Below are positions 2,385 through 57,150 of a stretch of 64,000 nt of DNA, in pieces. Origin of the DNA: Candidatus Omnitrophota bacterium (lineage in GTDB: Bacteria; Omnitrophota; Gorgyraeia; B26-G9); the NCBI GenBank assembly GCA_018817165.1, contig JAHITY010000088.1, positions 2,866 through 66,865 on the forward strand, written 5' to 3'. Made by a program: the position numbers and the translations under genes. The stretch's first letter is position 1. Each line of letters starts with the position of its first letter. Below the pieces are notes generated by a model. That model worked only from the letters and a program-made list of their open reading frames with translations. It made no database searches and was not told where the DNA came from.

Positions 2385-2387
2385 TAT

Positions 2388-8794: not shown

Positions 8795-9380
8795 ACATTA
8801 AAGACTCCTCTGTTATCCATTTATTAAATAGAGTTTTTGTTCTTTCTCCCGCATAAGAATTGAAAACTTTTTTCATCTTTGATTTCGATCCTCTCAAAAC
8901 ATTTTCTTTAACACTTTTAAGAACATCCTCTCTATTTTCTGCTAGCTCATTTAAATTATTCAACAAATCAACCAATAAAAACTCTTTAGAGAGATGTTTA
9001 GGAAATTTATACTTTAAATGAAAATAAAACAACTTTCCTCCAAGCATGAATTGTCCATGGCGTTTATAATTATAAACAACCCTCTTATTATACAGTTGTG
9101 TTGTTCCCACGCCCAATGAATTATATAAATTAGGAGTAGTTAAAAGGAAATCTTTACTTTTTAAAAAAACCTGCACAAGTTTTTCATCCTCTGGAGGAAC
9201 ATTCCCAAAGGATGCTTTCATGGGATAATAATACAATCCCTGCGATACTTTCTGCAAAACCTTTTCTTTTACTAATTGCTTTAAGTGTCTATCAACAGCA
9301 TTAGACCATTGCGCTAGATCACTCCTACGATAAACCCGTCCTGGTTTCAGATTCTTTTTTAACTCTTTAATTGCCTTCAT
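8787..9380 (-). CDS. abiEi: AbiEi-family antitoxin / transcriptional regulator
   Basis: A winged-HTH-like N-terminus (RVYRRSDLAQWSNAVDRHLKQLVKEKVLQKV). It overlaps the downstream AbiEii gene by 8 nt. Confidence 0.6.
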   Translation of the reverse strand: MKAIKELKKNLKPGRVYRRSDLAQWSNAVDRHLKQLVKEKVLQKVSQGLYYYPMKASFGNVPPEDEKLVQVFLKSKDFLLTTPNLYNSLGVGTTQLYNKRVVYNYKRHGQFMLGGKLFYFHLKYKFPKHLSKEFLLVDLLNNLNELAENREDVLKSVKENVLRGSKSKMKKVFNSYAGERTKTLFNKWITEESLMYA

Positions 9381-9837
9381 TTTCTCTCACCTCACACTAC
9401 AAGTATACAGTCTTATTTATTATATTGCAAGTTTTTTAATTTAAATTTCATGCACTTTATTGACTTAAAAACAGTTTAATTATAGAACACATCAACTATA
9501 TTTAACTCTCAATTAATCATCATTAACGCAACATTAAGATATAATTATAGTTACAGCAAACACAAAAATTAACCAGTTGCATATCCTTTTACTTGAGAGA
9601 TAAAAAACAGAGAATTTCTAGTTAATGCTTCAAATCTCACCCATTAATCTTAACAATATCCGCCATAAATTCATTTACTAAAACTGATTCGCGAATCGCG
9701 ATATTAGAGATAAAGAGATACTAAAAAAAGCAGAAATTAGAACATAGGGTTTAGGGATTAGGCCTCCCCAGATAAAAGCAGATTATTTAGATAGCAGACA
9801 ATAAATATAAGTCATAACTCTTTGATGTGTTTGCAGA

Positions 9838-9872
9838 TACAAAAGGCCTGATAAGTAATTCTTATCAGGCCT
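9838..9872 (-). terminator. Rho-independent terminator-like hairpin
   Basis: A perfect 12-bp stem (aggcctgataag/cttatcaggcct) with a taatt loop. On the minus strand it is followed by TTTTGT. Confidence 0.4.
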
Positions 9873-9908
9873 TCTATTATCTCTCAAACTGGTGTTCGAG
9901 AGATTTAT

Positions 9909-9935
9909 TTGGCTGCCCCGCAGAACATTGAACCG
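9909..9935 (-). repeat. Partial direct repeat of the tRNA-Gln 3' end (candidate att core)
   Basis: The 14 nt ttggctgccccgca are identical to the tRNA-Gln 3' end (10216..10229). A further partial match (ttgaacc) follows. Confidence 0.6.
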
Positions 9936-10180
9936 TCGTGTCGCTCCCCTTGAAAAGCAGGTCCACTCACTCCCTAAGGGAGCACTCTTTCAGTTCCCCC
10001 TTAGTATTCCTCCTCCCTACGCAAAGAAGTTCCAGTACGCCGATCCCGAATGAAGTTGCCTAAGAAAAATATCCATCGGGATCCCGAAGAATCACCACAG
10101 AAGTCGAGGCATTCGGGATAAGGGAAAAACAGTCTTTTTCCCTAAAACCCTTTTTTATGGTTCGAGTCCAGGGCATAAAT

Positions 10181-10205
10181 AAAAAACCCACACTAAAAGT
10201 GTGGG
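10181..10205 (-). terminator. tRNA-Gln terminator hairpin
   Basis: A stem cccacac/gtgtggg flanked by an A-run and a T-run, immediately 3' of the tRNA. Confidence 0.5.
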
Positions 10206-10216
10206 TCTTATTATTT

Positions 10217-10291
10217 TGGCTGCCCCGCATGGACTTGAACCATGAACAAATGATCCAGAATCATCCGTGTTGCCAATTACACCACGGGGCA
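10217..10291 (-). tRNA. tRNA-Gln (anticodon CUG)
   Basis: The hand-folded 75-nt sequence has a 7-bp acceptor stem, U8, a D-loop with GG, anticodon loop UUCUGGA, T-loop TTCAAGT and an encoded CCA. Confidence 0.85.
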
Positions 10292-10333
10292 GTAAATTTA
10301 TCTATCAAATAATAGCAGAGTTAATTGTATTTG

Positions 10334-11641
10334 TCAAATATCGAATTCTTTTGCTTTTAACTTGTTGATCACAGATGTAAGCCTGGCAACCGATTTTTCT
10401 TTGCCTAAGAATTCAATAATTTCAAATATTCCCGGACTAACCGTCCCTCCGGTTAAAGCCACCCGCACTGGATGAATCAGCTCTCCGGCATTAATTCCCA
10501 AAGCATCAACCAAAACTCGAACATTTGCTTCTATTTGTTGTTTATCAAACGGATTGCTTTTTTCTAAAGCCTGGACAAATTTCTCCAAATAATCACAGAC
10601 ATTATCAATCTTTAAAAATTTATCCACAGCATCTTGGTCATATTCTATTTCATCTTTAAAGAAAAAACCGGCTAATTTGGAAAAATGTTCTAAAGTCGGC
10701 AAGCGAGTTTTATACAAAGCAATCAAACCAGTCAGCCATTTCTGATCATAAGTATCCGAAATATAACCCTTTTCCTGTAAACTGGGAATAATCATCTGTG
10801 TCAGTTTATCAATATCCATTTCTTTAATATATTGACCATTAACCCAGCTTAAACGGGTCATATCAAATATTGCCGCGGTTTTATTTACCCGTTTTAAAGA
10901 AAATTCTTTGACAAGAGTTTTTAAAGTGAACATTTCTTTATCCGTTCCTGGATTCCAGCCCAGCAGTGCCAAGTAATTAACCACTGCTTCCGGCAAGTAA
11001 CCTTGATTGCGATATTCAGTAATTGCCGTTGCCCCATGACGCTTAGACATCCTCGAGCCGTCTTCGCCATGAATCATCGGAATATGCACAAATTTCGGCG
11101 GTTTAAGCCCTAGGGCTTCATAAAGCATGATCTGCTTCGGAGTATTGGCAATATGGTCATCTCCCCGGATAATATGGGTCATTTCCATCAAAGCATCATC
11201 AACCACACAACAAAAATTATACGCCGGACTGCCGTCGGATTTCAGCAATACTTGGTCTTTTAATTGCTCAGTTCCGATCGTAATTTCACCGCGTAAAACA
11301 TCAAAGAACTTTATCGCCGCGTTTTCCGGAATCCGATAAATAATCGCCTCACCGTCTTTATAGGCTTTTCCAGAATCAAGCAGCTTTTTCGCGTATTCAC
11401 GATAAATATCAAACCGCTCACTTTGATAATATAATTCATCCCAATCCATTCCCAGCCATTTTAAACTATCTAAAATTTCATCCAGATATTTTTTTTCTGA
11501 GCGGACCTGATCAGTATCTTCAATTCTCAGGATAAATTTTCCCTTAGTAGAACGGGCATACAACCAGTTAAACAAACAAGTCCGCGCACCGCCAATATGT
11601 AAAAATCCAGTCGGTGAAGGAGCAAAACGAACTATCGGCAT
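10334..11641 (-). CDS. gltX: Glutamate--tRNA ligase
   Basis: A HIGG motif (FLHIGGARTC), KMSKS (RMSKRHG) and the overall class I GluRS architecture. Confidence 0.9.
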   Translation of the reverse strand: MPIVRFAPSPTGFLHIGGARTCLFNWLYARSTKGKFILRIEDTDQVRSEKKYLDEILDSLKWLGMDWDELYYQSERFDIYREYAKKLLDSGKAYKDGEAIIYRIPENAAIKFFDVLRGEITIGTEQLKDQVLLKSDGSPAYNFCCVVDDALMEMTHIIRGDDHIANTPKQIMLYEALGLKPPKFVHIPMIHGEDGSRMSKRHGATAITEYRNQGYLPEAVVNYLALLGWNPGTDKEMFTLKTLVKEFSLKRVNKTAAIFDMTRLSWVNGQYIKEMDIDKLTQMIIPSLQEKGYISDTYDQKWLTGLIALYKTRLPTLEHFSKLAGFFFKDEIEYDQDAVDKFLKIDNVCDYLEKFVQALEKSNPFDKQQIEANVRVLVDALGINAGELIHPVRVALTGGTVSPGIFEIIEFLGKEKSVARLTSVINKLKAKEFDI

Positions 11642-11670
11642 AATAATATTTCCTTTGTTTTAGTCTAAAA

Positions 11671-11688
11671 GTCTAAGAGTTCTTAGAC
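11671..11688 (-). terminator. Hairpin downstream of dxs (stem gtctaag/cttagac)
   Basis: A perfect 7-bp stem with a 4-nt loop and a T-run on the minus strand. It belongs to the TCTTAGAC repeat family. Confidence 0.4.
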
Positions 11689-11745
11689 TAAGAGTTTTTA
11701 AATAAATATTTAACAAACCATTAGCTATTAGCCATTGACCATCAG

Positions 11746-13650
11746 CTATTTTATGATCAACGCTGTATAAAACTGTTTAACCGAATCAGCAATCCCCTGA
11801 GCACTCAAACCGCATTGGCTGAGCAGCTGTCCTCTTTTTCCATGCTTTAAAAATTTATCCGGTAATCCCAGCATTTTTATCGCGCAGTGATCCGTTAAAT
11901 TGTTTTGAATAAATTCCGAAACCGCACTGCCAAACCCGCCGCTGATAACTCCATCTTCTACAGTAATTATCGCTTTAAATTCACTGGCTTTTTGTCTGAT
12001 CAAATCCTCGTCCAAAGGTTTTACAAACCGCGCGTCCACAACCTCGGCATAAATATCCTGTGTCTCGAGAATCTTTGCCGCCTCAAAAGCTAAAGCTACC
12101 ATGCTGCCCAAAGCAAAAATTGAAACATCCTTGCCTTCGCGAATAATCCGCGATTTTCCCAAAGGAATAAAAGAACTGCTTTTCTTAAGGCCCATATCCG
12201 GTACACAATCCTTGGGATAACGAATCGCGCAAGGCGGCTTAAGCGACATCGCCAAAGTCAATAAACGTTCAAATTCATCTTTATCTGAAGGAGCCATAAC
12301 CACCATATTCGGGATCAACCGCAAATAAGCAATATCAAAAACCCCATTATGCGTCGGACCGTCATCCGGCACAATTCCCGCTCGATCAATCGCAAAGACA
12401 ACCGGCAATTTTTGCAGACAAACATCGTGAATTATCTGATCAAAACTTCGCTGTAAAAAAGTCGAATAAATTGCTACTACCGGTTTAAAACCACCCCGGG
12501 CAAGCCCGGCAGCAAATCCTACAGCATGCTCTTCGGCAATTCCGGTATCAAAAAATCGTTCCGGGTATTTCTCACCAAAAGCCTCAAATCCCGTACCCCC
12601 AGGCATAGCCGCTGTGATCGCCACTATTTTTTCGTTTTTCTCACCTAATTCCAACATTTTATCCTGAAAAACTTCTGTATATGACTGCCCTGTGGACTTT
12701 TTCATTATCCCGGAACAAATTTCAAATTTTCCCGCGCTATGAAATTTAGATGGAGCATTTTCCGCGTGCTCATAACCTTTGCCTTTTTTAGTCAATAAAT
12801 GAATAAGTACTGGTTCATCAAGATCCGAAACATTTTTAAACATTTCAATCATTGCCGGAATATCCTGGCCATTCATCGGACCAAAATATCTAAATCCTAG
12901 TTCTTCAAACCATAAACCCGGCACCAGCATTTTAATTAATCCCATTTCTAATTGTTTGGCAGCACGCAAAGTCCTAAAGCCAAACCAAGGAACTCTTTTT
13001 AATAACTTTTCCACATCCTGACGAATCCGATTATACAAAGGACTGCTGACGATCCGGTTCAAATAACTGCTCAAGGCTCCGATACTCGGAGAAATACTAT
13101 GTTCATTATCATTTAAAATAACCATTAGTTTTTTATTCAAATGGCCGGTATGGTTTAAAGCTTCAAAAGCCATACCATTAGCCAAAGAAGCATCGCCGAT
13201 AACTACAGCTATTTTTCTTTCTTCTAATTTTTTAATTTCCCGATTCTTGATATCCCGGGCGCAAGCCAGCCCTAATGCCCAGGAAATAGACGTTGAGCTA
13301 TGGCCTACCGTAAAATAATCATACGTCGGATTTTCATCAATATCCGGAAAACCGCTCAAGCCGCCTGGCTGGCGTAAAGTTGTAAAATCATTTTTCCGTC
13401 CGGTAATAATCTTGTGCGTATAGGCTTGATGCCCCACATCAAAAAGAATAACATCCTGCGGCATATCCAAGCAATAATGTAATGCCAGAGTCAACTCAAT
13501 TGTTCCCAGATTGCTGGCTAAATGACCTCCGGTTTTGGCAACAGTATCAATTATTAAATGCCTGATTTCAACAGCCAGAGCCTGCAGCTCTTTGATAGAA
13601 AGCTTTTTAAGATCATGCGGGCGATGCACCTTGTCTAATATTTTTGTCAT
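11746..13650 (-). CDS. dxs: 1-deoxy-D-xylulose-5-phosphate synthase
   Basis: Carries GGHLASNLG, GDG and a transketolase-like domain order. Confidence 0.9.
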   Translation of the reverse strand: MTKILDKVHRPHDLKKLSIKELQALAVEIRHLIIDTVAKTGGHLASNLGTIELTLALHYCLDMPQDVILFDVGHQAYTHKIITGRKNDFTTLRQPGGLSGFPDIDENPTYDYFTVGHSSTSISWALGLACARDIKNREIKKLEERKIAVVIGDASLANGMAFEALNHTGHLNKKLMVILNDNEHSISPSIGALSSYLNRIVSSPLYNRIRQDVEKLLKRVPWFGFRTLRAAKQLEMGLIKMLVPGLWFEELGFRYFGPMNGQDIPAMIEMFKNVSDLDEPVLIHLLTKKGKGYEHAENAPSKFHSAGKFEICSGIMKKSTGQSYTEVFQDKMLELGEKNEKIVAITAAMPGGTGFEAFGEKYPERFFDTGIAEEHAVGFAAGLARGGFKPVVAIYSTFLQRSFDQIIHDVCLQKLPVVFAIDRAGIVPDDGPTHNGVFDIAYLRLIPNMVVMAPSDKDEFERLLTLAMSLKPPCAIRYPKDCVPDMGLKKSSSFIPLGKSRIIREGKDVSIFALGSMVALAFEAAKILETQDIYAEVVDARFVKPLDEDLIRQKASEFKAIITVEDGVISGGFGSAVSEFIQNNLTDHCAIKMLGLPDKFLKHGKRGQLLSQCGLSAQGIADSVKQFYTALIIK

Positions 13651-13667
13651 AAATCTATCCCTTGGTT

Positions 13668-13916
13668 TTATTCAGCTTCTAATTTCTGCTCATCAAAACT
13701 TTCTAACTCAAGTTTTTTCCCGTCTTTTTTAACTAAAACATCAACTTTTTTCTTTGCTTCTTGGAGTTTCTTATTACAAACAGCAATTAATTTCATGCCC
13801 TCTTCATAGTTTTTAAGCGAAACATCCAAAGATATATCCTCAGATTCTAAATCCTCAGCAATTTTCTCTAGATTTTTTAAAGCTTGTTCAAACGACAGTT
13901 CTTTCATTTTCGACAT
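13668..13916 (-). CDS. xseB: Exodeoxyribonuclease VII small subunit
   Basis: An 82-aa helical protein with LSFEQALKNLEKIAEDLE. It lies in the xseA-xseB-dxs gene order. Confidence 0.8.
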   Translation of the reverse strand: MSKMKELSFEQALKNLEKIAEDLESEDISLDVSLKNYEEGMKLIAVCNKKLQEAKKKVDVLVKKDGKKLELESFDEQKLEAE

Positions 13917-15181
13917 TCCTCCACTTGACTTATAATAACACCTTTATCTAATTTTGTCTCTAATATATCTCCTTTTTTCAAACCCTGAATATCTTTGAGC
14001 AGTTTTTTTTCAGAGGATAAATAAGTAACACTATAGCCGCGGGATAATATCGCTAAAGGATTCAGATTCAGCAGTCTGGCGCTGATCTGGGCTAAGTGCG
14101 ATTGTTTGGTCTTTAATAACCGAGATATTCCTGCTTCGAGATTGATTAAAGGCTTAAACCGGGCATTTTTAGTGTCTAGAACATTTAAAATTCCGGTTTT
14201 TAATCTTTTGTCTAAATTATCCAGACTCTGCTGGTATTGCTCCACAATCACCTGGGGCCGACGCAAAGCATAACTTTTGATTAAATGCGAAAAGCGCATT
14301 TGAGCTAACTTAAGTCTCTGGACAACTGATTCTGTTAACCTTTTGGCCATTGACTCAACCGCTAAAACTAATTGCTCTTTTTCCTGCACCACTAATTCCG
14401 CGGCAGCCGAAGGCGTGGGGGCACGCAAATCAGCGACAAAATCACAAATTGTAAAATCAATTTCATGGCCCACCGCTGATATGATCGGAATTCGGGAATT
14501 ATAAACGGCTCTGGCTACAGGCTCCTCATTAAACGCCCATAAATCTTCCAAGCTGCCGCCGCCCCGGCCAACAATAATCACATCAATATCTTTAAATGAA
14601 TTTAATTCTTCAATTGCACAAGCAATATCCAATGCCGCGGTTTTACCCTGAACCAGACAAGGACGAATAATAATATGCACATTCGCATAACGCCGATTAA
14701 TTACCTGCAGAATATCTCTGATTGCCGCGCCCGTAGAAGATGTAACAATTCCGATTTTCTGGGGTAAAAACGGCATTACCCGCTTATGAGCAGGATCAAA
14801 TAACCCCTCGGCTGCTAGTTTTTTCTTTAGCTGTTCATAGGCAAGCTGTAATGAGCCTTTGCCCAATGGTTCCACACTATTGACATACAGCTGATATTGA
14901 CCGCTTTGATCATATAAACTGATCCGGCCGGCACACACACATTCCATACCATCTTCGGGTTTGAAATTAAGCCGCATGCTCGCATTTTTAAAAAAAACAC
15001 ATTTAAGCTGAGCTTTTTCATCTTTTAGGGTAAAGTACATATGCCCTGATTGAGGAGTCCTCAAAGTAGAGACTTCTCCTTTGATCCAAACTTGGGGAAA
15101 GCTGTCTTCTAAAATCTCACGGATATTCCGCGTAAGTTCCGCGACAGTATAAATTGTTTTTTCTTTAAATAAATCAGCCAT
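13904..15181 (-). CDS. xseA: Exodeoxyribonuclease VII large subunit
   Basis: An OB-fold N-terminus and catalytic core (GRGGGS) with a coiled-coil C-terminus. Confidence 0.9.
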   Translation of the reverse strand: MADLFKEKTIYTVAELTRNIREILEDSFPQVWIKGEVSTLRTPQSGHMYFTLKDEKAQLKCVFFKNASMRLNFKPEDGMECVCAGRISLYDQSGQYQLYVNSVEPLGKGSLQLAYEQLKKKLAAEGLFDPAHKRVMPFLPQKIGIVTSSTGAAIRDILQVINRRYANVHIIIRPCLVQGKTAALDIACAIEELNSFKDIDVIIVGRGGGSLEDLWAFNEEPVARAVYNSRIPIISAVGHEIDFTICDFVADLRAPTPSAAAELVVQEKEQLVLAVESMAKRLTESVVQRLKLAQMRFSHLIKSYALRRPQVIVEQYQQSLDNLDKRLKTGILNVLDTKNARFKPLINLEAGISRLLKTKQSHLAQISARLLNLNPLAILSRGYSVTYLSSEKKLLKDIQGLKKGDILETKLDKGVIISQVEECRK

Positions 15182-15272
15182 AATCTTTCAAGTCACCAGT
15201 CAATAGCTAATGGTCTATGGTCTATTGTCAATAATATTTAAGTTTTTAATTTTTTTCTGATTTTACTATTAG

Positions 15273-16374
15273 CTATGAGCTGGTAACACTCCACTTTAAA
15301 AAACCTTCGAGAAAATCATCGATCTTTCCATCCATGACAACCGGAACATTGCCGGTTTCCACTCCCGTGCGATGATCTTTGATCATTGAATAAGGATGCA
15401 TAACATACGAACGGATCTGAGAGCCCCATTCTATTTTTTTCTTCAGAGCATTATGTTTGTCCGCTTCGGCTTGTCTTTCTTTTAATTCCAGCTCATAAAG
15501 CTTTGATGTTAACATTTTCATCGCCATCGCTTTATTCTTTATCTGTGAGCGCTCATTCTGACACTGCACAACTATATTTGTCGGTAAATGAGTAATCCGG
15601 ACAGCGGAATCAGTAGTATTAACATGCTGTCCGCCGGCACCGCCGGCTCGGCAGACATCTATGCGTAAATCATCTTCATTGATTTCAATATTTATATCCT
15701 GATCTACCTCAGGAATGACTTCCACGGAAACAAAAGAAGTATGCCGGCGTTTATTCGAATCAAAAGGCGATATTCTCACCAAACGGTGCACACCGTTTTC
15801 GCCTTTTAATTTTCCATAAACAAATATTCCTTTGATCAATATAGTCACACTTTTCACCCCGGCTTCTTCGCCTTGTAAAAAGTCAATCGTATCCACACTA
15901 AACCGATTATTTTCCGCCCAGCGGGTATACATCCGCAAAAGCATACTCGCCCAATCACAAGACTCTGTGCCTCCGGCTCCGGCATGAATACTTAAAAAAG
16001 CATTTGCTTGATCATCGGGTCCTGAGAGCAGTAAGTTTATTTCCAGATTATCAACTAATTTTTCCAGTTCAGAAAGTTCTTTTTTGATTTGCTTTAGCGT
16101 ATCAGTATCATCAGCTTCTACAAGTTCTAATAATTCTCCGATGTTTTTTACATCTGCTTCAGCTTTTTGGATAGGTTCGGCTTGACGTTTGAGCAGTTTT
16201 AAATCTTTTATAATTATATTCGCTTTTTCCTGATCACTCCAAAAATCAGAAACAGCCATTTTTTCTTCTAGTACTTTAATTTTAGATGACTTTGTAGCCA
16301 GGTCAAAGATACCCCCTGAGCTGTTCAAATTGATCAGAAATAAGTTTAAATTTTTCTTTTAATTCTTCATGCAT
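15273..16374 (-). CDS. prfB: Peptide chain release factor 2 with a programmed +1 ribosomal frameshift
   Basis: Carries GGQHVNTTDSAVR. In frame 0, the ATG at 16374 gives 25 codons ending ...CAG CTC AGG GGG TAT CTT TGA C (LRGYL-stop, at about 16297..16299). The +1 frame continues DLATKSS... to 15273. The track ORF 15273..16328 starts from an internal TTG in the +1 frame. Confidence 0.85.
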
Positions 16375-16487
16375 ATTAATAAATCCTTTTTGAGTTATGG
16401 CCAGCTAAACAATTTTACTCTTCAAACTTTATTGATGACCTGCCAACCGAAGCTTACTTCTTTGAAGCTCCATTCGCTAGCGTAGGT

Positions 16488-16573
16488 TGGTGCCGAAGGT
16501 GGGATTTGAACCCACACGCCCTTGCGGACACATGGCCCTGAACCATGCGCGTCTGCCATTCCACCACTTCGGC
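16488..16573 (-). tRNA. tRNA-Leu (anticodon CAG)
   Basis: GCCGAAG...CTTCGGCACCA with a 7-bp acceptor stem, a long variable arm, anticodon loop TTCAGGG and a TTCAAAT T-loop. Confidence 0.85.
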
Positions 16574-16632
16574 TGATAGGTTTTATATTGTACTATTCAA
16601 TCAAAAAATTTGCAAATTAAAATTTAGCAGGA

Positions 16633-16959
16633 TTAATTAGGAACAAAAGATATCTCAGTACTGAGAAAAATCTCTTTTTGTACTACCCCTTTTATAACAA
16701 CAAGATCCTGAGCAGTGATTTCACTTATCTTGCAAACAATGTTCTTTTCTTTAAGCCGATTGGATATTATTGTATGGGGTGCGACTTTGACCAGAACTTG
16801 TTTATTAATATAAGGTAAATGCACTTCAATACTGTCTTCACTAACAGTCATAACGATTCCGCTTAATTCAAACGGAGGATTATAATCCGCAGCCAAAACA
16901 TTACTTGCGTAAAACCAACTAAGCACCACAAACAAACCGATAATTATTTTTTTAAACAT
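16633..16959 (-). CDS. Small secreted hypothetical protein (signal peptide)
   Basis: A hydrophobic N-terminal leader MFKKIIIGLFVVLSWFYASNVLA. Confidence 0.45.
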   Translation of the reverse strand: MFKKIIIGLFVVLSWFYASNVLAADYNPPFELSGIVMTVSEDSIEVHLPYINKQVLVKVAPHTIISNRLKEKNIVCKISEITAQDLVVIKGVVQKEIFLSTEISFVPN

Positions 16960-16960
16960 A

Positions 16961-17242
16961 TTAACCGAATTTATAGACCTTTCTGATGGGCTCTATCACT
17001 GTCCAGGTACAGGATAAGCCCTTAGGAAACACCACCAAATCTCCGGCGCCAAAACTAACTTCCTGTTCAGCAGTTTTAACCTTTACTTTTCCTTCAAACA
17101 CATAAGCTGTCTCGCGATCAGAATAAGTCCAATCAAATGTGCTTTTTTCACATTCCCAAGCACTCCAGTTTTTAATCCCTAATGCATCAAGTTCTTTCTG
17201 ACTAGGCTTTTTTACTTCAATCTTCATATCTCCTCCTCTCAA
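16961..17242 (-). CDS. Small cupin-fold protein (DUF861/cupin_3-like)
   Basis: A 93-aa protein resembling EutQ-like cupins. Confidence 0.5.
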   Translation of the reverse strand: MRGGDMKIEVKKPSQKELDALGIKNWSAWECEKSTFDWTYSDRETAYVFEGKVKVKTAEQEVSFGAGDLVVFPKGLSCTWTVIEPIRKVYKFG

Positions 17243-17370
17243 TATCTGTGTTTATTATACAGCTTAATCAGACAAAAAATCCAGCTGATTATTCTTTATA
17301 CCCAAAAAAAGCTAGCAACTCTTAGACTTTTAGACTCTTAGACTCTTAGTCTTTTAGTCTCTTAGTCTAT

Positions 17371-18555
17371 CTAGACAATTGAACAAATACTTGCCGGATA
17401 AACTGTCCAATCGCCGAATCTTTTATTGATCGCATCCTGCGCATTGCAAATCTGATAACGTTTTTGGGCATCAGCCAATAAAAAATTGTTTGTTGCCGGC
17501 ATAAAGTTCTTCACACTTATTCCCAAAGCTCTGACCTCAACATTTTTCGTATTTAATTTATCCAGTAAAAATAATGCCCGTTTAAAAATCTGTTTTGAAT
17601 CATTATTATATTCTTTGAAATTCTTTTCTCCGGAAATAGATTTCATGTCAGGTTTGCGCAAATAAATATGCACGGTGTTTGCTTCTAAATTGTGTCTGCG
17701 CAGCCTGAAACCAACCATCTCTGCTAATAATTGCATCCAGGCTTCTATTTCCCCTCGAGTATAAATATTCTGATTTAAAGTATATGAATGACCGATTGAT
17801 TTCGGATCTTTGGGTTTTTGATCTACCCAGTCAATTTCTTCATCAGCAACAACAATCTCAGGATGCGCCAGCGCATACATCCACAATCCGATTTTACCAA
17901 ATCTTTGCTGATAAAAATCCGCGGAAAATTTCCGCATATCTGAAAAAGAAAATATGGATAAATCCTGCAATTTAGCGCTTAAGCTTGCGCCAATCCCGGG
18001 AATTTTTTGAATCGGCAAATCCTTTAAAACAGAAATAATATCGGCTCTGGGCATGATCATCATCCCATCCGGCTTTTTAAGCTTTGAAGCGATCTTCGAC
18101 ATCAAGCGGTTTACCGATATGCCTACCGACCCGGTAATCGAAAATTTCTTCTTGATTTCCTGTTTGATCCGCATCCCCAAGTCAAAATAGGAGCCAAACA
18201 TTTTATCCAAACCAGTAATATCCAGATAAAATTCATCTATTGAGGCCTGTTCGATTTGCGGTGAATAATTTTTAAGCATCTCGGCGATTTGATCAGACAC
18301 ATACAGATATTTAGCGGAATCAGCACTGACAAATTCAGCATTTGGACATATCCGCAATGCCTGCTGAGTGCTCATCCCGGAATCGATACCCAAAGCTTTT
18401 GCTTCATAAGAAGCCGCGCAAACAACTGTGCGCTGTTTATCTGCCCGGCCGCCGACAATTAACGGTTTACCTTTAAGCCGCGGATTATACGCCTGCTCTA
18501 CTGAAGCGAAAAACGCGTCCATGTCTATGTGTAAAATTTTAGGTTCATTTTTCAT
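17371..18555 (-). CDS. dinB: DNA polymerase IV (Y-family)
   Basis: The N-terminus HIDMDAFFASVE and a palm/fingers/little-finger domain order. Confidence 0.9.
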   Translation of the reverse strand: MKNEPKILHIDMDAFFASVEQAYNPRLKGKPLIVGGRADKQRTVVCAASYEAKALGIDSGMSTQQALRICPNAEFVSADSAKYLYVSDQIAEMLKNYSPQIEQASIDEFYLDITGLDKMFGSYFDLGMRIKQEIKKKFSITGSVGISVNRLMSKIASKLKKPDGMMIMPRADIISVLKDLPIQKIPGIGASLSAKLQDLSIFSFSDMRKFSADFYQQRFGKIGLWMYALAHPEIVVADEEIDWVDQKPKDPKSIGHSYTLNQNIYTRGEIEAWMQLLAEMVGFRLRRHNLEANTVHIYLRKPDMKSISGEKNFKEYNNDSKQIFKRALFLLDKLNTKNVEVRALGISVKNFMPATNNFLLADAQKRYQICNAQDAINKRFGDWTVYPASICSIV

Positions 18556-18874
18556 GTTAAAAACACACGCCCTGTAACATACCGATAAAGAAGTTGGTTT
18601 ACAGGCAAAAACACATCTTTTCGCTAAGCCTGAGCCTGCATCGTGCAGACCCAGCCGCGCGTTCTCACTATTTTGACATCCCTGTCAAAATGACGTTCGA
18701 AAGCGCCGCTCAAAGAGAATTTTTGCCCAGCGAATTAGCCATTTCAACCAATCATATTTTTCTTTTCACTTTTAACTTTATAAACTTTACAAACTGTTTT
18801 AGTTTTTTACTATCGACCATTAGCTATCAGCCATCGACTCTTAGACTTTTAGACTCTTAGACTTTTTAGTCTAA

Positions 18875-19159
18875 TTATTCTTCCTCAATGATCTTCCACT
18901 TCATTCTCTGCTGGCTAAAACACAGGGTATAGCGGCTATTATTTGTATCACTGACACTGAACAATTGAAAAACTTCTTTACCCTTTTTATCCTGCCATTT
19001 CAAATTCACATCTTTTATAATATGCTTTTGGGAATTAATAAAAAACCAAAGCGGCAAAAACCCTCCCTGTTTAAATGAGACAACTATGTCCACATTCTCA
19101 CCGGGCAGACTATCATCTTGCGGAAGCGGCCTATCCCAGCGGGCATTCGGATTAAACAT
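18875..19159 (-). CDS. Hypothetical small protein inside the lexA-dinB SOS unit. The likely start is M17 of the track ORF.
   Basis: The track ORF 18875..19207 overlaps lexA. The internal Met MFNPNARW at 19159 abuts the lexA stop. No recognisable motifs. Confidence 0.35.
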   Translation of the reverse strand: MFNPNARWDRPLPQDDSLPGENVDIVVSFKQGGFLPLWFFINSQKHIIKDVNLKWQDKKGKEVFQLFSVSDTNNSRYTLCFSQQRMKWKIIEEE

Positions 19160-19739
19160 ATTGCCTGACCGCGGTAATAACTTTGCCAATGATTTGTGAG
19201 CGTTCATTCAAAGCAATTATCGGATAATTTTTATTTGCCGGCTCAAGAAAGAACTTATTCTCGCGGCTTCTTAATGTCTTGACTGTTACTTCGCCATCAA
19301 TCCGGCAAACCACAACATCTTTATTCTGCGCGCAGGGCTGCTTTTTTACCAACACCAGATCATCCGGCATGATCCCCGCGTCAATCATGCTATCGCCATG
19401 CACGCGTAAAAAAAACAATTCATCTTTTTGCGAAAACAATTTATCCACATTAAAATAATCTTCTACGTTTTCTATGGCTAATACCGGAACTCCCGCTGGC
19501 ACAATCCCTAATATCGGAACAGTCAGCATTGCTTTTTCCGTTAATTCAATAGCCCGGGATTTTTTTTCTTCTAAAATAAGATATCCTTTTGTGCATAATG
19601 CTTTTAAATAATCCCTGACTGTTCCGGTTGATGAAAACCCGAATTCCGAAGCAATTTCCCGAATAGTCGGCGGTAATCCATTGCGGATTGTTTTACGAAT
19701 AAACATCAGCACTTCCTGTTGCTTGGTAGTCAAATCCAT
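19152..19739 (-). CDS. lexA: LexA repressor (S24 peptidase)
   Basis: A winged-HTH N-terminus, the cleavage region, Ser in GDSM and Lys in VTVKTL. Confidence 0.9.
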   Translation of the reverse strand: MDLTTKQQEVLMFIRKTIRNGLPPTIREIASEFGFSSTGTVRDYLKALCTKGYLILEEKKSRAIELTEKAMLTVPILGIVPAGVPVLAIENVEDYFNVDKLFSQKDELFFLRVHGDSMIDAGIMPDDLVLVKKQPCAQNKDVVVCRIDGEVTVKTLRSRENKFFLEPANKNYPIIALNERSQIIGKVITAVRQYV

Positions 19740-19821
19740 CGTTTAAGCCTCCCCGATTAATGTTATGTTTTCTATTAAAAATAATAATACCACACATTTG
19801 TGTGGACGTCAAGAAAAAGAC

Positions 19822-19846
19822 ATAAAAAAAACCGTCTTATCGACGG
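19822..19846 (-). terminator. Rho-independent terminator downstream of the carbamate-kinase-like gene
   Basis: A stem ccgtc/gacgg followed on the minus strand by a 9-nt T-run. Confidence 0.5.
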
Positions 19847-19875
19847 AGAAATTAATTAAAGCAAGCAGTTAAAGA

Positions 19876-21219
19876 TTATATTGCTTGGGCAATTATAAGT
19901 TGAAATTCAAGCCCCCCCGCTTGTTGCGGATAAGCAGATATCGGCACTTGACTTAAAGCGATATTTTGCCGCGGCGTTTTCTTTTCATCCAATCCTTGAA
20001 TCGCAATATCGTCAAAAGAGTTCTTGGGACTGCGCTCAATGCGCGTATGCAATCCCCCCTTATCTATCTTTGCTAAATTCTCAGGATTTGTAATAATGAC
20101 CTCTTTTGCTGCGCCTGATTTAATAATACTTATTGCTGCTTGTAATTTAGGCAGCATCGATCCTTCGGTGCCGGCAAATTCGCCGCTATCAATGTATTGT
20201 TGAAGCCGGTCTGCGGTAATATTGGAAATAGGCCGCTGTGTTGAACGCCCATAATCAAGGTAAACACGCTTAACATCCGTTGAGATAATAACACGACTCA
20301 GCGGTTTTTGTTCGGCAGAATATCTGCTTTTAAACAGGCTCTCAGCCAGACAAGCTGTTGCTAAGTCTTTATCAATCACTGCCGGCAAACTGCGCGCTTG
20401 ATTATTCATATCCACCGCAATTCCGCCGCCGCCGACACAAATAACAATCTTTTTAGCTCTTATTGCTTTTTCTATTTTATCTATTTGAACAATCGATTTC
20501 GGCTTTGGGCTGGCAACCAGGACTCGCGGAATTGGCTCTTCTTTCCCGTTAACTGTTTTAAACCGCGCCAAGCCAATAGGCTTTTTCGGGTTAGTAAAAC
20601 CTTCATCCGCAGCATCTACTCTGACATCAGTCATAACAACTTCTATTTGGTTTTCAGAAATACCCAAGCTCATAAGCGCTTCCTTGATATCCGCTCCGAT
20701 CCACTCCTGGGTTTCCTTAACCCCTTGCGCTAGTTTTTGGTTAATGAATTCTTGATCTTTATTTCCATCAAGGAAGCGGCCAAGCCATCTGTCAAGTACT
20801 GCCCCGGCCTCAGGCCCATTGCCATGAGTAATAATTCCCCCCTTTTTTAACTCTGGGAGAATATGCCTTAGTGTTTCTTTTATTCGGTCTTTCTGGATAT
20901 CCGATATTTTCTGCCAATCATCTTTTTTCCAGGGCATTAAGCCCTTTACATCCTCACCTCTCAACAGAGAATTACCACCAATGGAATAAATTTCAGTTGA
21001 TTTGCTTTTCCTAAGGCGCTCTTTAAATGCAGGATATAAAATAGATTGTTTATAAATAGTCTGAAAAGCATTTAGCTGTATTTGGACTTGCGGGGAAAGC
21101 ATTGCAGGAACTCCTTGTTGCTCGTTAAGTAAAAATGTTCCTTGTCCCGCTAACGCGCAATCTGCCATCAGTATTGCCTGGATCAATATTAACGCTATGT
21201 TTTTTAGTATTTTATTCAT
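19876..21219 (-). CDS. Carbamate kinase-like amino-acid-kinase family protein with a predicted signal peptide and N- and C-terminal extensions
   Basis: Carries IGGNSLL and IITHGNGPEAG (carbamate kinase signature). The N-terminus MNKILKNIALILIQAILMADCALAGQ is signal-peptide-like. At 447 aa it is about 130 aa longer than ArcC. Confidence 0.55.
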   Translation of the reverse strand: MNKILKNIALILIQAILMADCALAGQGTFLLNEQQGVPAMLSPQVQIQLNAFQTIYKQSILYPAFKERLRKSKSTEIYSIGGNSLLRGEDVKGLMPWKKDDWQKISDIQKDRIKETLRHILPELKKGGIITHGNGPEAGAVLDRWLGRFLDGNKDQEFINQKLAQGVKETQEWIGADIKEALMSLGISENQIEVVMTDVRVDAADEGFTNPKKPIGLARFKTVNGKEEPIPRVLVASPKPKSIVQIDKIEKAIRAKKIVICVGGGGIAVDMNNQARSLPAVIDKDLATACLAESLFKSRYSAEQKPLSRVIISTDVKRVYLDYGRSTQRPISNITADRLQQYIDSGEFAGTEGSMLPKLQAAISIIKSGAAKEVIITNPENLAKIDKGGLHTRIERSPKNSFDDIAIQGLDEKKTPRQNIALSQVPISAYPQQAGGLEFQLIIAQAI

Positions 21220-21264
21220 AATTTTTCGAGTTTCAAGCCCTTCACACTAAGCATTTCATCTTAT

Positions 21265-22146
21265 TTAAATCGCCTGTTCAATTAATGAAAAAAGTTCATT
21301 AATATCAACACATTGTCCAAAATCACTATATTTCGGCATTGTATTTACCTGTTTATCCTCTTCTTCATAGACTTGAATCAACTGTCTAAAATAATTATCG
21401 GTAAAGTCACGTTCTATTGGAAAATTTTCACCTTGGCCTTCTTGTTCAAGAGATCTTATTGCTTTTTCAGCTATATCCCCTGGGATATCTTGAAAATTTT
21501 CCCAGATAAAAGTAAATACACCTGTCGCCCCTTTTTTACTGCCGACAGGATAGGGTTCTTCAACTAATTTATCAAAAAACATCTTAGTCGTAGGAAACTC
21601 TGCATCGGCTAATTGTCTTGACTGTTCAAAATAGAGATTATTTCTTCTCTGTTCTACATTATAAGCAACTTTTTGCTTTATATGGGCAAGAACCTGCTCT
21701 GCTGATCTTTGCTTTGCCAGCCCCCTACTAATATGTGCGGAAAGATATCTGTAAATCCCCTTTATGCCAAAAGCATCAATATTGTCCACATCATAAAGTA
21801 TTTTTGTTTCAAGGTTTAAATCATGCAAAACATTAGCAGTATCTTCAGGTATCTTTTTATCATGAAATGCTACAGCTTGTTTTATTTTCTCTATTTGCTC
21901 ATCGGTAAAAATATCATTTTCTCTAAAATTCTGTTCTATAAAATCGGCTGCCTGCTGTCCATGCGATTCAGAATCTTCAGCAAATATATCATGCAAATAA
22001 ATTGCTGCCGTTAAAACTTTCCAGTCTACGGCCTCATCTTTATTTAACTTAATTACAAGCATTTCAGCTTTTTCAAGCAAATCAACTGAGTGCTGCATAC
22101 CATGGTGTATATTTTCACTAAAACAGCGTCTAAAAAAATGTTCCAC
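21265..22146 (-). CDS. HD-domain phosphohydrolase family protein
   Basis: Carries H...HD motifs (IHHGMQHS, AIYLHDIF). Confidence 0.55.
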   Translation of the reverse strand: MEHFFRRCFSENIHHGMQHSVDLLEKAEMLVIKLNKDEAVDWKVLTAAIYLHDIFAEDSESHGQQAADFIEQNFRENDIFTDEQIEKIKQAVAFHDKKIPEDTANVLHDLNLETKILYDVDNIDAFGIKGIYRYLSAHISRGLAKQRSAEQVLAHIKQKVAYNVEQRRNNLYFEQSRQLADAEFPTTKMFFDKLVEEPYPVGSKKGATGVFTFIWENFQDIPGDIAEKAIRSLEQEGQGENFPIERDFTDNYFRQLIQVYEEEDKQVNTMPKYSDFGQCVDINELFSLIEQAI

Positions 22147-22188
22147 TCTTACACTCTCCTTGAAAAATATGCTATGTATTTTTTATTA

Positions 22189-23901
22189 CTATATCGATCG
22201 CTCGGCAAAATGTACTTTTGAAGCCCTATTTTTATTTAAAGGTTTAAACAATAACAGCGGATTATCCTCAGGAGTTTGCTTATACTCTAAATTATCAACT
22301 GCATGTAAAAAGTCCTTATTTTCTTTAGCAATTTTTAGAATATATTCCAAATCAATTTTATCTTTTGATAGCAAGCCTTGCATATTCAGCGAATCAACTT
22401 GCTCAGTTTCAAGCAACCGAACATTAATTGCAAGTCTGGCAATAGGATCCCTGAGCATCCTAACCAATGCCTCTTCCAAATAATTACATTTGCTAATACT
22501 TTTCGATAAATTAGGGACAAATTCTTTTGCTTTTTCATACAATAGTATTTGCCCATTTTCTTTGAAAAATGTTTTAATCACCATGTTTTTACGAATATAC
22601 CGCATTGAATCTTTTATTGATTTACTATTAACATTCCCCATGCTAAAAACACTGTCAGGAATATAAATAGACCCTAAAAAATATTCTCCACGCGCACTTA
22701 TAGTTAAAGAGTTGTCCAATCTCACTGAAGAAACACTAGGGGTAAATTTTAGCTTTCTGTAATGTTCATCCTCCCGATAATCTCCAGAGTTTTTCAATAC
22801 AAATTTATCATATAAATCTTGCGGCAGATTTTCCGCATCTCCCATCTGCAATAAGTTTGCATATAAAACTTTCAAAGCTCCTTTTTTTAATTTTATTGTT
22901 CTTAATTTGATTCCACCAGGCAACAAATTTTCTTCATCCTGAACAATATTACCCCCTAAAAACTTTACAAAATCATCAAGTTCGTCATCTTGGCTCGTGA
23001 CATATGTATGTAGATATAAGGTCCCACCAGGAAATAGAGTAAAATACTTATCTATAAATCTTCCGATTTTTTCTAAGGGTATATGCTGTTGATGAACAGT
23101 GTCAACAGAAAGCATAAAAGTCGGAGATTTCTTTTGTTCAGCCGCTGCAAATTCAATCATAAAATCCTCGGCCCAACGTTCATCTATCCACCAACCGTTG
23201 GTAAACATCAAGCCCGTTCTCATTCCCAAACTTTTTGCCATTCTTATAGTTTCCAAAAGCTCATTACGTACCAAAGAAAGTTCACCGCCCATGAAACGAA
23301 TCTCTTCGACTCCCGATGCCTTAGCATCTAAAAGAATTTTTTTTATTTGCGAAATAGAGAGTTTTTCTTTATGCTCCGGATTCACTTTAGCAAGACAAAA
23401 CCTGCACTTTGCATTACATCTTTCAGTAAGACAAAGTGTCAGGTATCGCGGCATTGATATCTTATCATTATTTACTATATTATCTGCAATATAGTCCTCC
23501 ATTAATTTTGCCCAGACCATAAGATACATTTTTCTTCTAAACAAATCCTCCGTATTTGCTGATAAATACCGCAGATAGTTTAAAACAGTATTATCTGCTA
23601 TCCCGAAATCATATATTACTGCCCTCATCTGCATATAAGTTTTATAATAATATTCTTGTTTTCGTCCAAAATCCTTGAACCCAGAGTCCAGAATATCATC
23701 TATCTTATTTTTAAAAGGTGGCGAAAAATATCCCATATAATCAAAAACTGATGGGTCACTAACCTTTTCAGCATTGAATATATACTGTATTTGATTCACA
23801 TCTAATGAAGCTCTAGGTGAAAGCATTGTATCTTGCTGTGCCCAGGCAATATTGCTAAGCAGTAGCATTTGAATGATTAATAATATAATTTTTTTATTCA
23901 T
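22189..23901 (-). CDS. Radical SAM protein with a signal-peptide-like N-terminus and a roughly 150-aa N-terminal domain of unknown function
   Basis: Carries CLTERCNAKCRFC (CxxxCxxC). The N-terminus is MNKKIILLIIQMLLLSNIAWAQQ. No SPASM-type cysteine cluster. Confidence 0.7.
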   Translation of the reverse strand: MNKKIILLIIQMLLLSNIAWAQQDTMLSPRASLDVNQIQYIFNAEKVSDPSVFDYMGYFSPPFKNKIDDILDSGFKDFGRKQEYYYKTYMQMRAVIYDFGIADNTVLNYLRYLSANTEDLFRRKMYLMVWAKLMEDYIADNIVNNDKISMPRYLTLCLTERCNAKCRFCLAKVNPEHKEKLSISQIKKILLDAKASGVEEIRFMGGELSLVRNELLETIRMAKSLGMRTGLMFTNGWWIDERWAEDFMIEFAAAEQKKSPTFMLSVDTVHQQHIPLEKIGRFIDKYFTLFPGGTLYLHTYVTSQDDELDDFVKFLGGNIVQDEENLLPGGIKLRTIKLKKGALKVLYANLLQMGDAENLPQDLYDKFVLKNSGDYREDEHYRKLKFTPSVSSVRLDNSLTISARGEYFLGSIYIPDSVFSMGNVNSKSIKDSMRYIRKNMVIKTFFKENGQILLYEKAKEFVPNLSKSISKCNYLEEALVRMLRDPIARLAINVRLLETEQVDSLNMQGLLSKDKIDLEYILKIAKENKDFLHAVDNLEYKQTPEDNPLLLFKPLNKNRASKVHFAERSI

Positions 23902-24192
23902 TTAATTCCTTATCAAAAAGACATAATACAGAAAAGAGAAAATACTCGCAGATAATTTTTACACTTAATCATTTTGTCTCTTACCTCTTGTTAATCAAAA
24001 TGTTAGGACTAATATATTCCTAATAAAAAAGATTTTAAAGTATACCATATACCCCAGAGATTCGCAAACAAAACCCTATTTTTATTATTAATATAAGTCA
24101 TTTAATTACAATATATTATGCGCTTAATTTTTGAGAATTGATAACTGTTTTTAATCTGAGGTTTGGATTTAGACAAGCTTCAGGGGGAGATA

Positions 24193-25143
24193 TTACTTTA
24201 GGATTCTTAATTCTACAGAAATAAGCTGCTCAAACGCTTCTTTATCTGATGAAAAAGTATTTTTATTATTAGATAAATTAATATCAGCAGAATCTTTCTG
24301 TAATGTTCCACTGCCGGCTAAAAACAATTGTAGCTTTAGGAAATTCTCATAAGTAATATTAAAGGAAAATATTTCCTGGCTTTCTTCAACGCTGTTAAAA
24401 ACTTGGGTGGCATTATATGTGCTGAGAATTTTGCTTATTTGCTGTTTACTAAACAGCTCATCGAAATCTATGATCAGAACTTGTTTTTGTTCATTTCCTT
24501 CAGAAGAAGGTTTTGCTGCTTCAGCTAAGCTTAAAAAGGCTTTATCCTGAACTTTTAATTCCAGCCCAGCCGGAGAATAGGCATCTAAAGCTGCCTCAGA
24601 ATCACCTATTTGCAGAGCTGCCGGCTTACTGCTATCAGCTATTTCCTGTTTAGCCAAGCGGCCAGAAGTTTGGCTAATAATTGATTTTTTTTTGGCAGAT
24701 TGAATCTCCTCGTGGCTTGTTAATTGAGATTCCTGAACATCTCTCTCAGTTAAAATAAAAGCATCTTGTTCATTGATCAGTCCTCTATGCTTGGCTGGCA
24801 GCATATTAAGTTGATTGTTAACCGCGATTACTAAGACTATTGTTGCCACTAAAGCAAAAGCTCTTGCCGAAGAAGTCCTTGGGAAAAAATTCCTTAATCC
24901 CAGAAAAACCTTTTCCCAGAAAGGCAATTCATCAAGCCGCTTATTAACATTATCAATAAAATCCGCTGGAGGATTAATTGCCTTAATCTTATGCATAATG
25001 CTTACCATCTCAGTTATCGACTCAAGTGATTGTGCGCAAGCCGGACAATCTTCAATATGCTTGGTCATAACCATCTGCTGTTTTTTATCTAATTCATTAT
25101 CCAGGAATTTTGAAAGTAGTTTTTTGCAATCCTGACAATTCAT
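24193..25143 (-). CDS. Zinc-finger (ZAS-type) anti-sigma factor, membrane-spanning
   Basis: Carries CQDC...HIEDCPAC at the N-terminus and a central transmembrane segment (AFALVATIVLVIAV). Confidence 0.6.
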   Translation of the reverse strand: MNCQDCKKLLSKFLDNELDKKQQMVMTKHIEDCPACAQSLESITEMVSIMHKIKAINPPADFIDNVNKRLDELPFWEKVFLGLRNFFPRTSSARAFALVATIVLVIAVNNQLNMLPAKHRGLINEQDAFILTERDVQESQLTSHEEIQSAKKKSIISQTSGRLAKQEIADSSKPAALQIGDSEAALDAYSPAGLELKVQDKAFLSLAEAAKPSSEGNEQKQVLIIDFDELFSKQQISKILSTYNATQVFNSVEESQEIFSFNITYENFLKLQLFLAGSGTLQKDSADINLSNNKNTFSSDKEAFEQLISVELRILK

Positions 25144-25144
25144 A

Positions 25145-47921: not shown

Positions 47922-48022
47922 ATAAAACTCCGTCGTGCGTATCGCGTATAGAGTATTGAGTTTTAAAAAATTGTATTATTTTGCTTTAACGCAATACGCA
48001 TTACTCAATACGCAATACTATT

Positions 48023-48964: not shown

Positions 48965-49195
48965 AAAATATCTCTATTGCCTTCTGTTCCTAGCGTATAG
49001 CGATTTTTAAAAGTCACAAGGACACAAAGTCGCCAGGTTTATATTTCATTTAATTGCTCTAATTAACCTAATTATTCTAATTTCTAAACAATTACCAATG
49101 ATATTAATTCTCAAAAATTATTTTAGTTTGTTAACTTTTTTAAGTTAGGTCAATTAGAAATTAGTAATTATTTTTCTGTCTTCTGTTCTCTTTGT

Positions 49196-49840: not shown

Positions 49841-49959
49841 ACCAGCGTATAGAAATTAGCGTTTAGCGAATAGAAAAACAAAAAGATTTGTTTACTCTAA
49901 ACTCTATACGCCATTTTTAGCTTTTGCTCTTCCTAAACGCTAAACGCTAATCCCTGCTT

Positions 49960-53830: not shown

Positions 53831-54050
53831 TCACTTAACGGTTCAGGTTGCAACTAAGTCAATTTTACAGTTATAGCTTTAAAAGGTTACGGTCAGGGTT
53901 ACGATGCCCGTTTCGGCTTACGGTAACGGCTGTCGTCTTAAAATTTATTGTTTTTAGCCTAAACCGTTTAACGTTACCGATACGGGTTTCGTTACCATTA
54001 AACCTTGCCGAGTGTCGACACATATCTGTTATTGCACAGCTCTGCGATTT

Positions 54051-57070: not shown

Positions 57071-57150
57071 CTCATTTTCCTTTTTTATTTTTTAAGCTTT
57101 TTCATCAGCCATGAGCTATGAGCCATGAGCAACTAATGCAGCGCGCTGCA

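Follow-up and report, generated by a model that had tools for sequence, protein, structure and literature searches.

Introduction

Intergenic repeats built of seven-base units have been known in cyanobacteria for more than 30 years and were later found in Beggiatoaceae and Bacteroidetes, and no mechanism or function has been agreed upon. The cyanobacterial heptamers, termed short tandemly repeated repetitive (STRR) sequences, were reportedly described by Mazel and colleagues in 1990. PMC4679880 covers such repeats in Cyanobacteria, Beggiatoaceae and Bacteroidetes and gives heptamers as the commonest class of long simple-sequence repeats (LSSR). Those of Nostoc are discussed in bioRxiv 10.1101/2022.06.06.494920. 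Here we describe arrays of this kind in 64,000 nt of a Candidatus Omnitrophota bacterium (assembly GCA_018817165.1, contig JAHITY010000088.1, positions 2,866 to 66,865 of the forward strand), a stretch that is referred to as the window, has a G+C content of 36% and carries almost all of its genes on the minus strand. An earlier note on this sequence had picked out an octamer and an 11-mer as a recurrent family that could represent terminators or repetitive extragenic palindromic (REP)-like elements, or operators of a global regulator. These motifs are only two of the unit families that make up a broader period-7 repetition of the spacer DNA, a point that the note had missed. The TCTTAGAC octamers and CCATTAGCTAT heptamers probably represent two families of lineage-wide spacer arrays of the STRR/LSSR type, made by slippage and copied between spacers. 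As far as we found in the literature, the array class has not been reported for Omnitrophota, and a literature search on the unit strings gave nothing relevant.

Intergenic arrays with a period of seven

Autocorrelation of the pooled intergenic DNA of the window revealed a period of 7 (z 7.5), harmonics of which appeared at 14 and 21. With automatic gene calls, the intergenic signal amounted to z 4.7 in the window and z 8.7 in the relatives L120 and L121 together; coding DNA gave period 3 only and no period-7 signal. Period-7/8 arrays detected by Tandem Repeats Finder (TRF) were about 30 times denser per base in spacers (window, L120, L121 and L130), an estimate based on open reading frame (ORF) gene calls, for which a few arrays hidden under spurious ORFs had first been reassigned by hand. 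The arrays are restricted to non-coding sequence, and in the spacers of this Omnitrophota clade their units are probably mostly of seven and sometimes of eight bases.

The TCTTAGAC/TCTTAGTC octamers are grouped in three gene spacers, where T[CT]TTAG[AT]C units on the plus strand form short arrays (TRF) at 11662-11695, 17318-17367 and 18836-18872; the three repeat regions reported earlier are therefore genuine. TCTTAGWC was counted 10 times (2.6 +/- 1.7 in dinucleotide shuffles, none of 100 reaching 10), with nine of the ten copies inside these spacers. An 18-mer, GTCTAAAAGTCTAAGAGT, is identical at all three loci, one copy being inverted. The octamers contain GANTC (HinfI/CcrM-type) sites, and HinfI-like genes are present in relatives, but GANTC was neither over- nor under-represented (197 observed, 195 +/- 12 expected) and a reading of the octamers as methylation sites was therefore dropped.

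The second motif, CCATTAGCTAT with up to one mismatch, was present in six copies (1.4 +/- 1.1 in shuffles). The counts of both motifs are above those of every shuffle. Arrays of CCATTAGCTAT-type heptamers were found in at least four spacers, and the unit ATRGCTA is common to four loci. Both the 11-mer and a 22-mer noted before turned out to be stretches of tandem heptamers (CCATTAG CTATTAG CCATTGA CCATCAG), and the two 22-mers, at 11718-11739 and 18817-18838, are near-identical as claimed (20/22). Further copies of the core had been placed at 15210 and 15283; the recurrence was correct, but the copies lie at 15203-15213 (exact, opposite strand) and at 15266-15276 (one mismatch, overlapping the prfB stop codon). 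A related motif near 57106 proved to be part of a real array (57103-57130). At the two loci that hold both the 22-mer and the octamers, their order is opposite.

All sites of the earlier note lie between minus-strand genes, as stated there. Two octamer arrays abut a stop codon and two heptamer arrays overlap one, the TAG stop codons of dxs and prfB falling inside ATAGCTA-type units, and the other TRF-detected arrays (four array-rich loci) begin 0-113 nt past the end of the upstream gene. Arrays are often nearer to the upstream stop codon than to the downstream promoter. Most units, not all, contain TAA or TAG, in a small and biased sample, which touches on the idea that arrays provide stops in all three frames.

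Turnover of the arrays among relatives

The window Dxs is 100% identical to the protein of a Candidatus Omnitrophica bacterium metagenome-assembled genome (MAG). The gene order lexA-dinB-cupin-tRNA-Leu-prfB-xseAB-dxs-gltX is kept in L120, L121-123 (Dxs 78%) and L126 (71%), its portion from the cupin gene to gltX in L125 (71%), and L124 (91%) is a contig with dxs alone. Orthologous spacers of relatives with 78-91% Dxs identity hold arrays of different units: GCGTATT/AATACTC arrays in the prfB-xseA spacer of L120 and L121, TCGTAAT units after dxs in L121, and TTNNCGAG octamers with YAACACG heptamers after dxs in L124. The TAGCGTT hairpin family of the window was detected at non-orthologous sites in L121, L124 and L127 (the last with Dxs 56% identical), and ATAGCTAATGG was found upstream of lexA in L121. 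Of the two relatives with 71% Dxs identity, L125 has no intergenic period-7/8 arrays and L126 only three.

A close relative, L130, surfaced in a metagenome scan for the 22-mer and is 87-90% (about 88%) identical to window 26614-10215. The 22-mer is identical in both, and the heptamer array at the dxs stop codon agrees in 29 of 32 positions. Downstream of the ORF 18875-19207 the octamer array of the window is exactly 16 nt, or two units, longer than that of L130, this being the sole locus informative on unit number. The octamer array between dinB and the cupin gene is absent from L130 as part of a missing 84-nt segment, with no replacement structure, target-site duplication or distinct termini. 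Other heptamers take the place of the dxs-gltX octamer array, and CAAATGN units are found instead in the prfB-xseA spacer. Between close relatives, arrays thus change in length by whole units or are exchanged altogether. Two regulatory sequences stay conserved in L130 while the arrays are remodelled, namely the promoter of lexA, including the palindrome CCACAC-N4-GTGTGG, and the extended -10 promoter of the cupin gene. Regulatory sequence proper is therefore preserved at this distance, and conserved operators can be excluded.

This bears directly on the suggestion of the earlier note that the motifs are operators of a global regulator. Binding sites of such a regulator, or of a nucleoid protein reading the heptad/octad units, would account for the recurrence of one motif upstream of several genes, and for Nostoc and Beggiatoaceae it has been suggested that factors bind to heptamer repeats. 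At the orthologous junctions of L120, L121, L124 and L130, however, the units differ or the array is absent, with the conserved lexA palindrome serving as positive control; the orientation is not fixed, and arrays tend to be closer to the upstream stop codon than to the downstream promoter. The neighbouring genes are also functionally unrelated: arrays stand next to gltX, dxs, xseB/A, prfB, the cupin gene, dinB, a small ORF, lexA, galT, fmt, priA, an lpxL-like gene and mtnP, and no common function was apparent among gltX, dxs, xseA, prfB, dinB, fmt, priA and mtnP. The lack of conservation largely refutes the operator reading, which we consider very improbable. Even less credible are contingency (phase-variation) loci, in which changes in unit number would switch neighbouring genes on or off. 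The 16-nt difference from L130 is a whole-unit difference as expected for such loci, and intergenic simple-sequence repeats behave in this way in Haemophilus and Moraxella, but the arrays lie between the stop codon and a conserved downstream promoter, outside promoter spacers and reading frames, and are flanked by essential housekeeping genes.

As to the lexA region itself, the promoter (TTGACG-17-TATTAT; window 19784-19812, minus strand) encloses a perfect palindrome, CCACACAAATGTGTGG, that is also located upstream of lexA in L120 (~3570-3600), L121 (~3290-3320) and L130 (~2480-2510). Its conservation in these three relatives makes CCACAC-N4-GTGTGG a candidate LexA box of this Omnitrophota clade. 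Beyond it, 5 kb of the window with about three genes (19818-24905) is replaced by ~750 nt in L130 (1710-2466), a strain-specific indel.

Folding and transcription termination

Inverted pairs of units from the same family enable a spacer to fold into a long imperfect hairpin. Calculated RNA folds were significant for several spacers, with z -6.6 for 49841-49962, -3.0 for 47922-48026, -2.9 for 15182-15285 and -2.8 for 11642-11752, and reached only -1.0 and -2.1 for the two main (longest) octamer arrays. The perfect small hairpins described in the earlier note exist in part: gtctaag-agtt-cttagac is found at 11671-11688, but 17318-17367 is a direct array in which pairing is limited to 5-base AGACT/AGTCT cores, and its fold is no more stable than that of shuffled sequence (z -1.0 and -1.6). 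Stems are AT-rich and about 82% complementary, with long loops and usually without a U-tract. Among the mismatches in 18 array hairpins, read on the coding strand, G.T did not significantly outnumber A.C (15 vs 8, p 0.21), and transversion mismatches predominated (41).

Scans for consensus terminators, run over 9000-28500 and 43000-62000, detected no G+C-rich stem with U-tract at the arrays on the minus (coding) strand, and the sole match at an array, 11670-11689, is on the non-coding strand. Neither consensus promoters nor terminators were enriched at the arrays or matched there on the coding strand. With the exception of a GC-rich palindrome at 57071-57150, array-bearing junctions in the scanned ranges are without a canonical terminator; other parts of the window do have canonical terminators with G+C-rich stem and T-run, for example at 44769-44794 and in the spacer 56130-56209. 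A search of the window with Rfam at gathering thresholds led to two tRNAs only, and no T-box, riboswitch or known small RNA was detected at the arrays.

These data allow the terminator or REP-like family of the earlier note to be judged. The arrays could be functional hairpins, selected because they form DNA cruciforms or, at the 3' ends of mRNAs, stem-loops that would weakly terminate transcription, or protect upstream mRNA from 3'-exonucleases, where a canonical terminator is missing; we regard this as unlikely. Such roles would fit the frequent position beside stop codons, the significant folds listed above, the location of the strongest hairpin between convergent genes and the scarcity of canonical terminators at array junctions. 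Inverted pairing is the rule not only in Omnitrophota but also in 'Nitrospinota' MAGs and high-GC contigs, and the mean fold z of array-bearing spacers (-2.0) is similar to that of spacers with canonical terminators (-2.2). On the other side, most stems lack a following U-tract, the two longest octamer arrays fold like shuffles, the imperfect stems with their many transversion mismatches and the statistically even G.T and A.C mismatches give no sign of selection for pairing at the RNA level, and the dinB-cupin array is lost from L130 without a substitute. What stands of the claim is a real, lineage-specific family of dispersed intergenic repeats, some copies of which are able to form 3'-end hairpins. 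The hairpin potential is real. Since U-tracts are lacking and the mismatches are not biased towards either RNA strand, the data establish neither selection for RNA structure nor a role as terminator or REP-like element, and the reading as classical terminators fails.

Arrays outside the Omnitrophota

The octamer pattern was found in more than 119 genome contigs, mostly of Bacteroidales and of four 'Nitrospinota' groundwater MAGs, and none of these matches shares homology with the window beyond the repeat itself. The copies in the 'Nitrospinota' MAGs make up regular (GTCTAAGA)3-loop-(TCTTAGAC)3 hairpins that are always intergenic and in some cases between convergent genes. Intergenic heptamer arrays containing the 22-mer were also detected in contigs of 37-67% G+C, including a Pedobacter-like one. 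In viral contigs, three permuted octamer units gave 58, 12 and 20 matches compared with 53 for the real unit. Tandem octamers of arbitrary units are thus common, the cross-phylum matches need no special explanation, and a special biosphere-wide status of the TTAGAC unit is ruled out by these controls.

Heptad/octad arrays in inverted arrangement were observed in high-GC contigs as well as in Omnitrophota, Bacteroidota and 'Nitrospinota' MAGs. Inverted pairs after stop codons might be conceived as a cross-phylum class of elements, made or recognised by a conserved factor, actively spread between spacers and lineages and acting as non-canonical terminators or insulators in terminator-poor genomes; we hold this to be rather improbable. 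Improbable as well would be miniature mobile elements, that is, arrays or array-armed hairpins of ~60-120 nt copied by a trans-acting enzyme in the manner of REPIN/RAYT (REP-associated tyrosine transposase) systems, miniature inverted-repeat transposable elements (MITEs) or the small dispersed repeats of Nostocales. Copying of this kind would explain the 18-mer shared by three spacers in both orientations, two of whose three insertions are absent from the 88%-identical relative, as well as the same families at non-orthologous sites in distant Omnitrophota and the 22-mer in arrays of unrelated genomes from 37% to 67% GC. Yet the copies have repeat units in common but neither internal nor flanking sequence, there are no fixed ends and no terminal inverted repeats apart from the arrays, and the 84-nt indel shows neither the defined termini nor the terminal inverted repeats or target-site duplication of a MITE. 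The switched order of 22-mer and octamers and the abundance of permuted units argue in the same direction, and no transposase or RAYT was identified among 20 window proteins scanned against NCBIfam.

Two observations from these other genomes are recorded separately. A dispersed hairpin, (AGTCTAAG/A)3 followed by an A-rich loop of 7-15 nt and (CTTAGACT)3, is present in the 'Nitrospinota' contigs L006, L012, L017, L018, L041, L047, L058, L063 and L118, on five contigs of one MAG and once directly upstream of a tRNA gene; it is regular and always intergenic, and has the look of a true REP-like family of that lineage. In L003 (4741-4968), GASNAAGA-type octamer arrays with up to ~28 copies include the variants GACTAAGA, GTCAAAGA and GACGAAGA; arrays of this type are found in intergenic DNA of Prevotellamassilia timonensis, a cultured gut Bacteroidales strain to which the contigs L010, L028, L054 and L056 belong as well.

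Further features of the window

The positions of the arrays, including families other than those of the earlier note, are compiled in Table 1.

Table 1. Repeat arrays located in the window
Feature	Position	Context	Comparison with relatives
Octamer array + hairpin TTAGTCTAAAAGTCTAAGAGTTCTTAGACTAAGAG	11662..11695	dxs-gltX spacer; ends 20 nt before gltX start codon	Absent from L130
Heptamer array CCATTAG CTATTAG CCATTGA CCATCAG CTAT, includes 22-mer	11708..11749	Overlaps dxs stop codon 11746-11748	29/32 kept in L130
Heptamer array, opposite orientation, ATAGCTA ATGGTCT ATGGTCT ATTGTCA	15192..15229	Right arm of imperfect hairpin across prfB-xseA spacer	
Left arm of prfB-xseA hairpin, CTCATAGCTAATAG	15265..15287	Minus strand; overlaps prfB stop codon 15273-15275	
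Six-copy octamer array, G[AT]CTAA[GA]A on coding strand	17318..17370	Abuts dinB stop codon 17371-17373	Part of 84-nt segment missing from L130
Heptamer array with second 22-mer copy CCATTAGCTATCAGCCATCGAC	18812..18838		Identical in L130
Octamer array + small hairpin TTAGACTTTTTAGTCTAA	18836..18874	Abuts stop codon of ORF 18875-19207	L130 two units (16 nt) shorter
GCGTATT / AATACGC inverted arrays	47939..48018	After fmt stop codon	Same units at prfB-xseA junction of L120 and L121
AATTAG-type heptamer arrays, inverted	49070..49172	Divergent fmt / TPR-gene spacer	
TAGCGTT / ACGCTAA inverted arrays, strongest hairpin (z -6.6)	49855..49951	Between convergent priA and TPR genes	Family at other loci in L121, L124, L127
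CGGTAAC / CCGTAAC-type inverted repeats	53897..53996	Spacer 53831-54050	
Related heptamer array, CATGAGC x4	57103..57130	Response-regulator gene-mtnP spacer; beside GC-rich palindrome	

Two further segments on the minus strand look structured, and neither matched Rfam. The first spans ~265 nt (window ~9910-10174) downstream of tRNA-Gln (10217-10291). An inverted copy of the tRNA T-arm/acceptor, GCCCTGGACTCGAACC, stands at its start, and at its end the tRNA 3' end, CCA included, is repeated in direct orientation. The segment is found again in L120 (13388-14114) and L125 (13389-13957) and after tRNA-Leu in L120, L121 and L126, sometimes twice, and might represent either an integrated element or an RNA linked to the tRNA. 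The second, a G+C-rich, structured-looking segment of ~125 nt (AAAAATTCTCTTTGAGCGGCGC...GATGTGTTTTTGCC, window ~18602-18724) upstream of dinB, is absent at this place in L130, and a visibly similar copy is found in the dxs-gltX spacer of the distant L125 (11903-12095); it behaves like a mobile or non-coding RNA element.

In prfB the usual programmed +1 frameshift site, GGGGGTATCTTTGAC, was recognised at window ~16310-16335 (minus strand), which explains why the listed ORF begins at a TTG codon at 16328. Window 1-2400 contains broken minus-strand reading frames, possibly of a pseudogenised ATPase-like gene, and 12-base tandem repeats, TACTTGTTCGGT and TTTCTTGGGTAG, are present at 3646-3680 and 3821-3857.

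Origin and significance of the arrays

From the confinement to spacers and the turnover among relatives, we favour an origin of the arrays by replication slippage, which would both create and resize them; slippage explains the indel of a unit multiple and the restriction to non-coding DNA. As identical units occur at several spacers and some were gained recently relative to L130, some copying between spacers is needed in addition, and units may have moved by short-patch recombination or copying. Inverted pairs would then result from template switching or from copying in either orientation, and selection might do no more than exclude arrays from genes and promoters. Any effect is probably generic, for instance that of a modest stem-loop at an mRNA 3' end or between transcription units, with no sequence-specific regulation.

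Several points weigh against this explanation. Slippage alone leaves unexplained why one unit is reused at several unlinked spacers and why families such as the TAGCGTT hairpins stand at non-orthologous sites in genomes with a Dxs identity as low as 56%. Two arrays of one family in the same spacer nearly always have opposite and rarely equal orientation, and array-bearing spacers fold better than coding controls (mean z -2.0 vs -0.44, p 0.03); the excess of inverted pairs together with the better folding suggests a mechanism or selection that favours hairpins. The survey, moreover, is limited to 64 kb from this genome and some 20 kb per relative.

The Omnitrophota arrays broaden the taxonomic range of intergenic heptamer repeats. 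Sister lineages poor in arrays (Dxs 71%) and close relatives with whole-unit differences together lend themselves to a natural comparison of how arrays originate and spread. In practice, arrays will mislead motif discovery and terminator prediction and complicate the assembly of such genomes, and they should not be annotated as regulatory sites.

Relation to described repeat classes

Intrinsic (Rho-independent) terminators resemble the array hairpins as stem-loops after stop codons, but the array stems are AT-rich, imperfect and long-looped and usually lack a U-tract. REP sequences, bacterial interspersed mosaic elements and REPINs of Proteobacteria (PMC3116915) are likewise short, dispersed extragenic hairpins, strain-variable and often just past stop codons. 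A REP, however, is a fixed, imperfectly palindromic sequence of 20-40 nt that owes its spread to a RAYT transposase (PMC3116915), whereas the elements described here are tandem arrays of variable unit composition without a fixed consensus; only units are common to the copies, arrangement and flanks differ, and the 20 proteins scanned included no RAYT.

The TAACTGA repeats of Beggiatoaceae, Cyanobacteria and Bacteroidetes (MacGregor 2015, PMC4679880) are closer. They too are found between unrelated genes, some of them essential, as arrays of 2-6 heptamers, with a patchy phylogenetic distribution, 7-nt indels between related strains and no evident transfer mechanism. In 'Maribeggiatoa' a single, forward-oriented unit dominates that is placed a few bases before start codons, and translational control was suggested (PMC4679880); the Omnitrophota arrays, in contrast, comprise many unit families in both orientations and are often nearer to the upstream stop codon.

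With the cyanobacterial STRR sequences the arrays share 7-base tandem units with variant copies, an intergenic and dispersed occurrence and several families per genome. They differ in their host, which belongs to Omnitrophota in the Planctomycetes-Verrucomicrobia-Chlamydiae (PVC) group, in their units and the additional 8-base family, and in the frequent position beside stop codons and arrangement as inverted pairs. The Candidatus Omnitrophica host and the different units set them apart from the strict STRR class, that of the STRR1-3 units of heterocystous cyanobacteria. The long simple-sequence repeats surveyed by Mrazek et al. 2007 (via PMC4679880) have units of 5-11 nt with heptamers commonest, a non-coding location and polymerase slippage as proposed origin; the survey predates Omnitrophota genomes and, as summarised there, is not known to describe inverted pairs or sharing of units between loci. 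In the broad sense of STRR/LSSR, the Omnitrophota arrays conform to the class, with head-to-tail units of 5-11 nt, a non-coding location, dispersal (within 64 kb) and whole-unit length change (at one locus).

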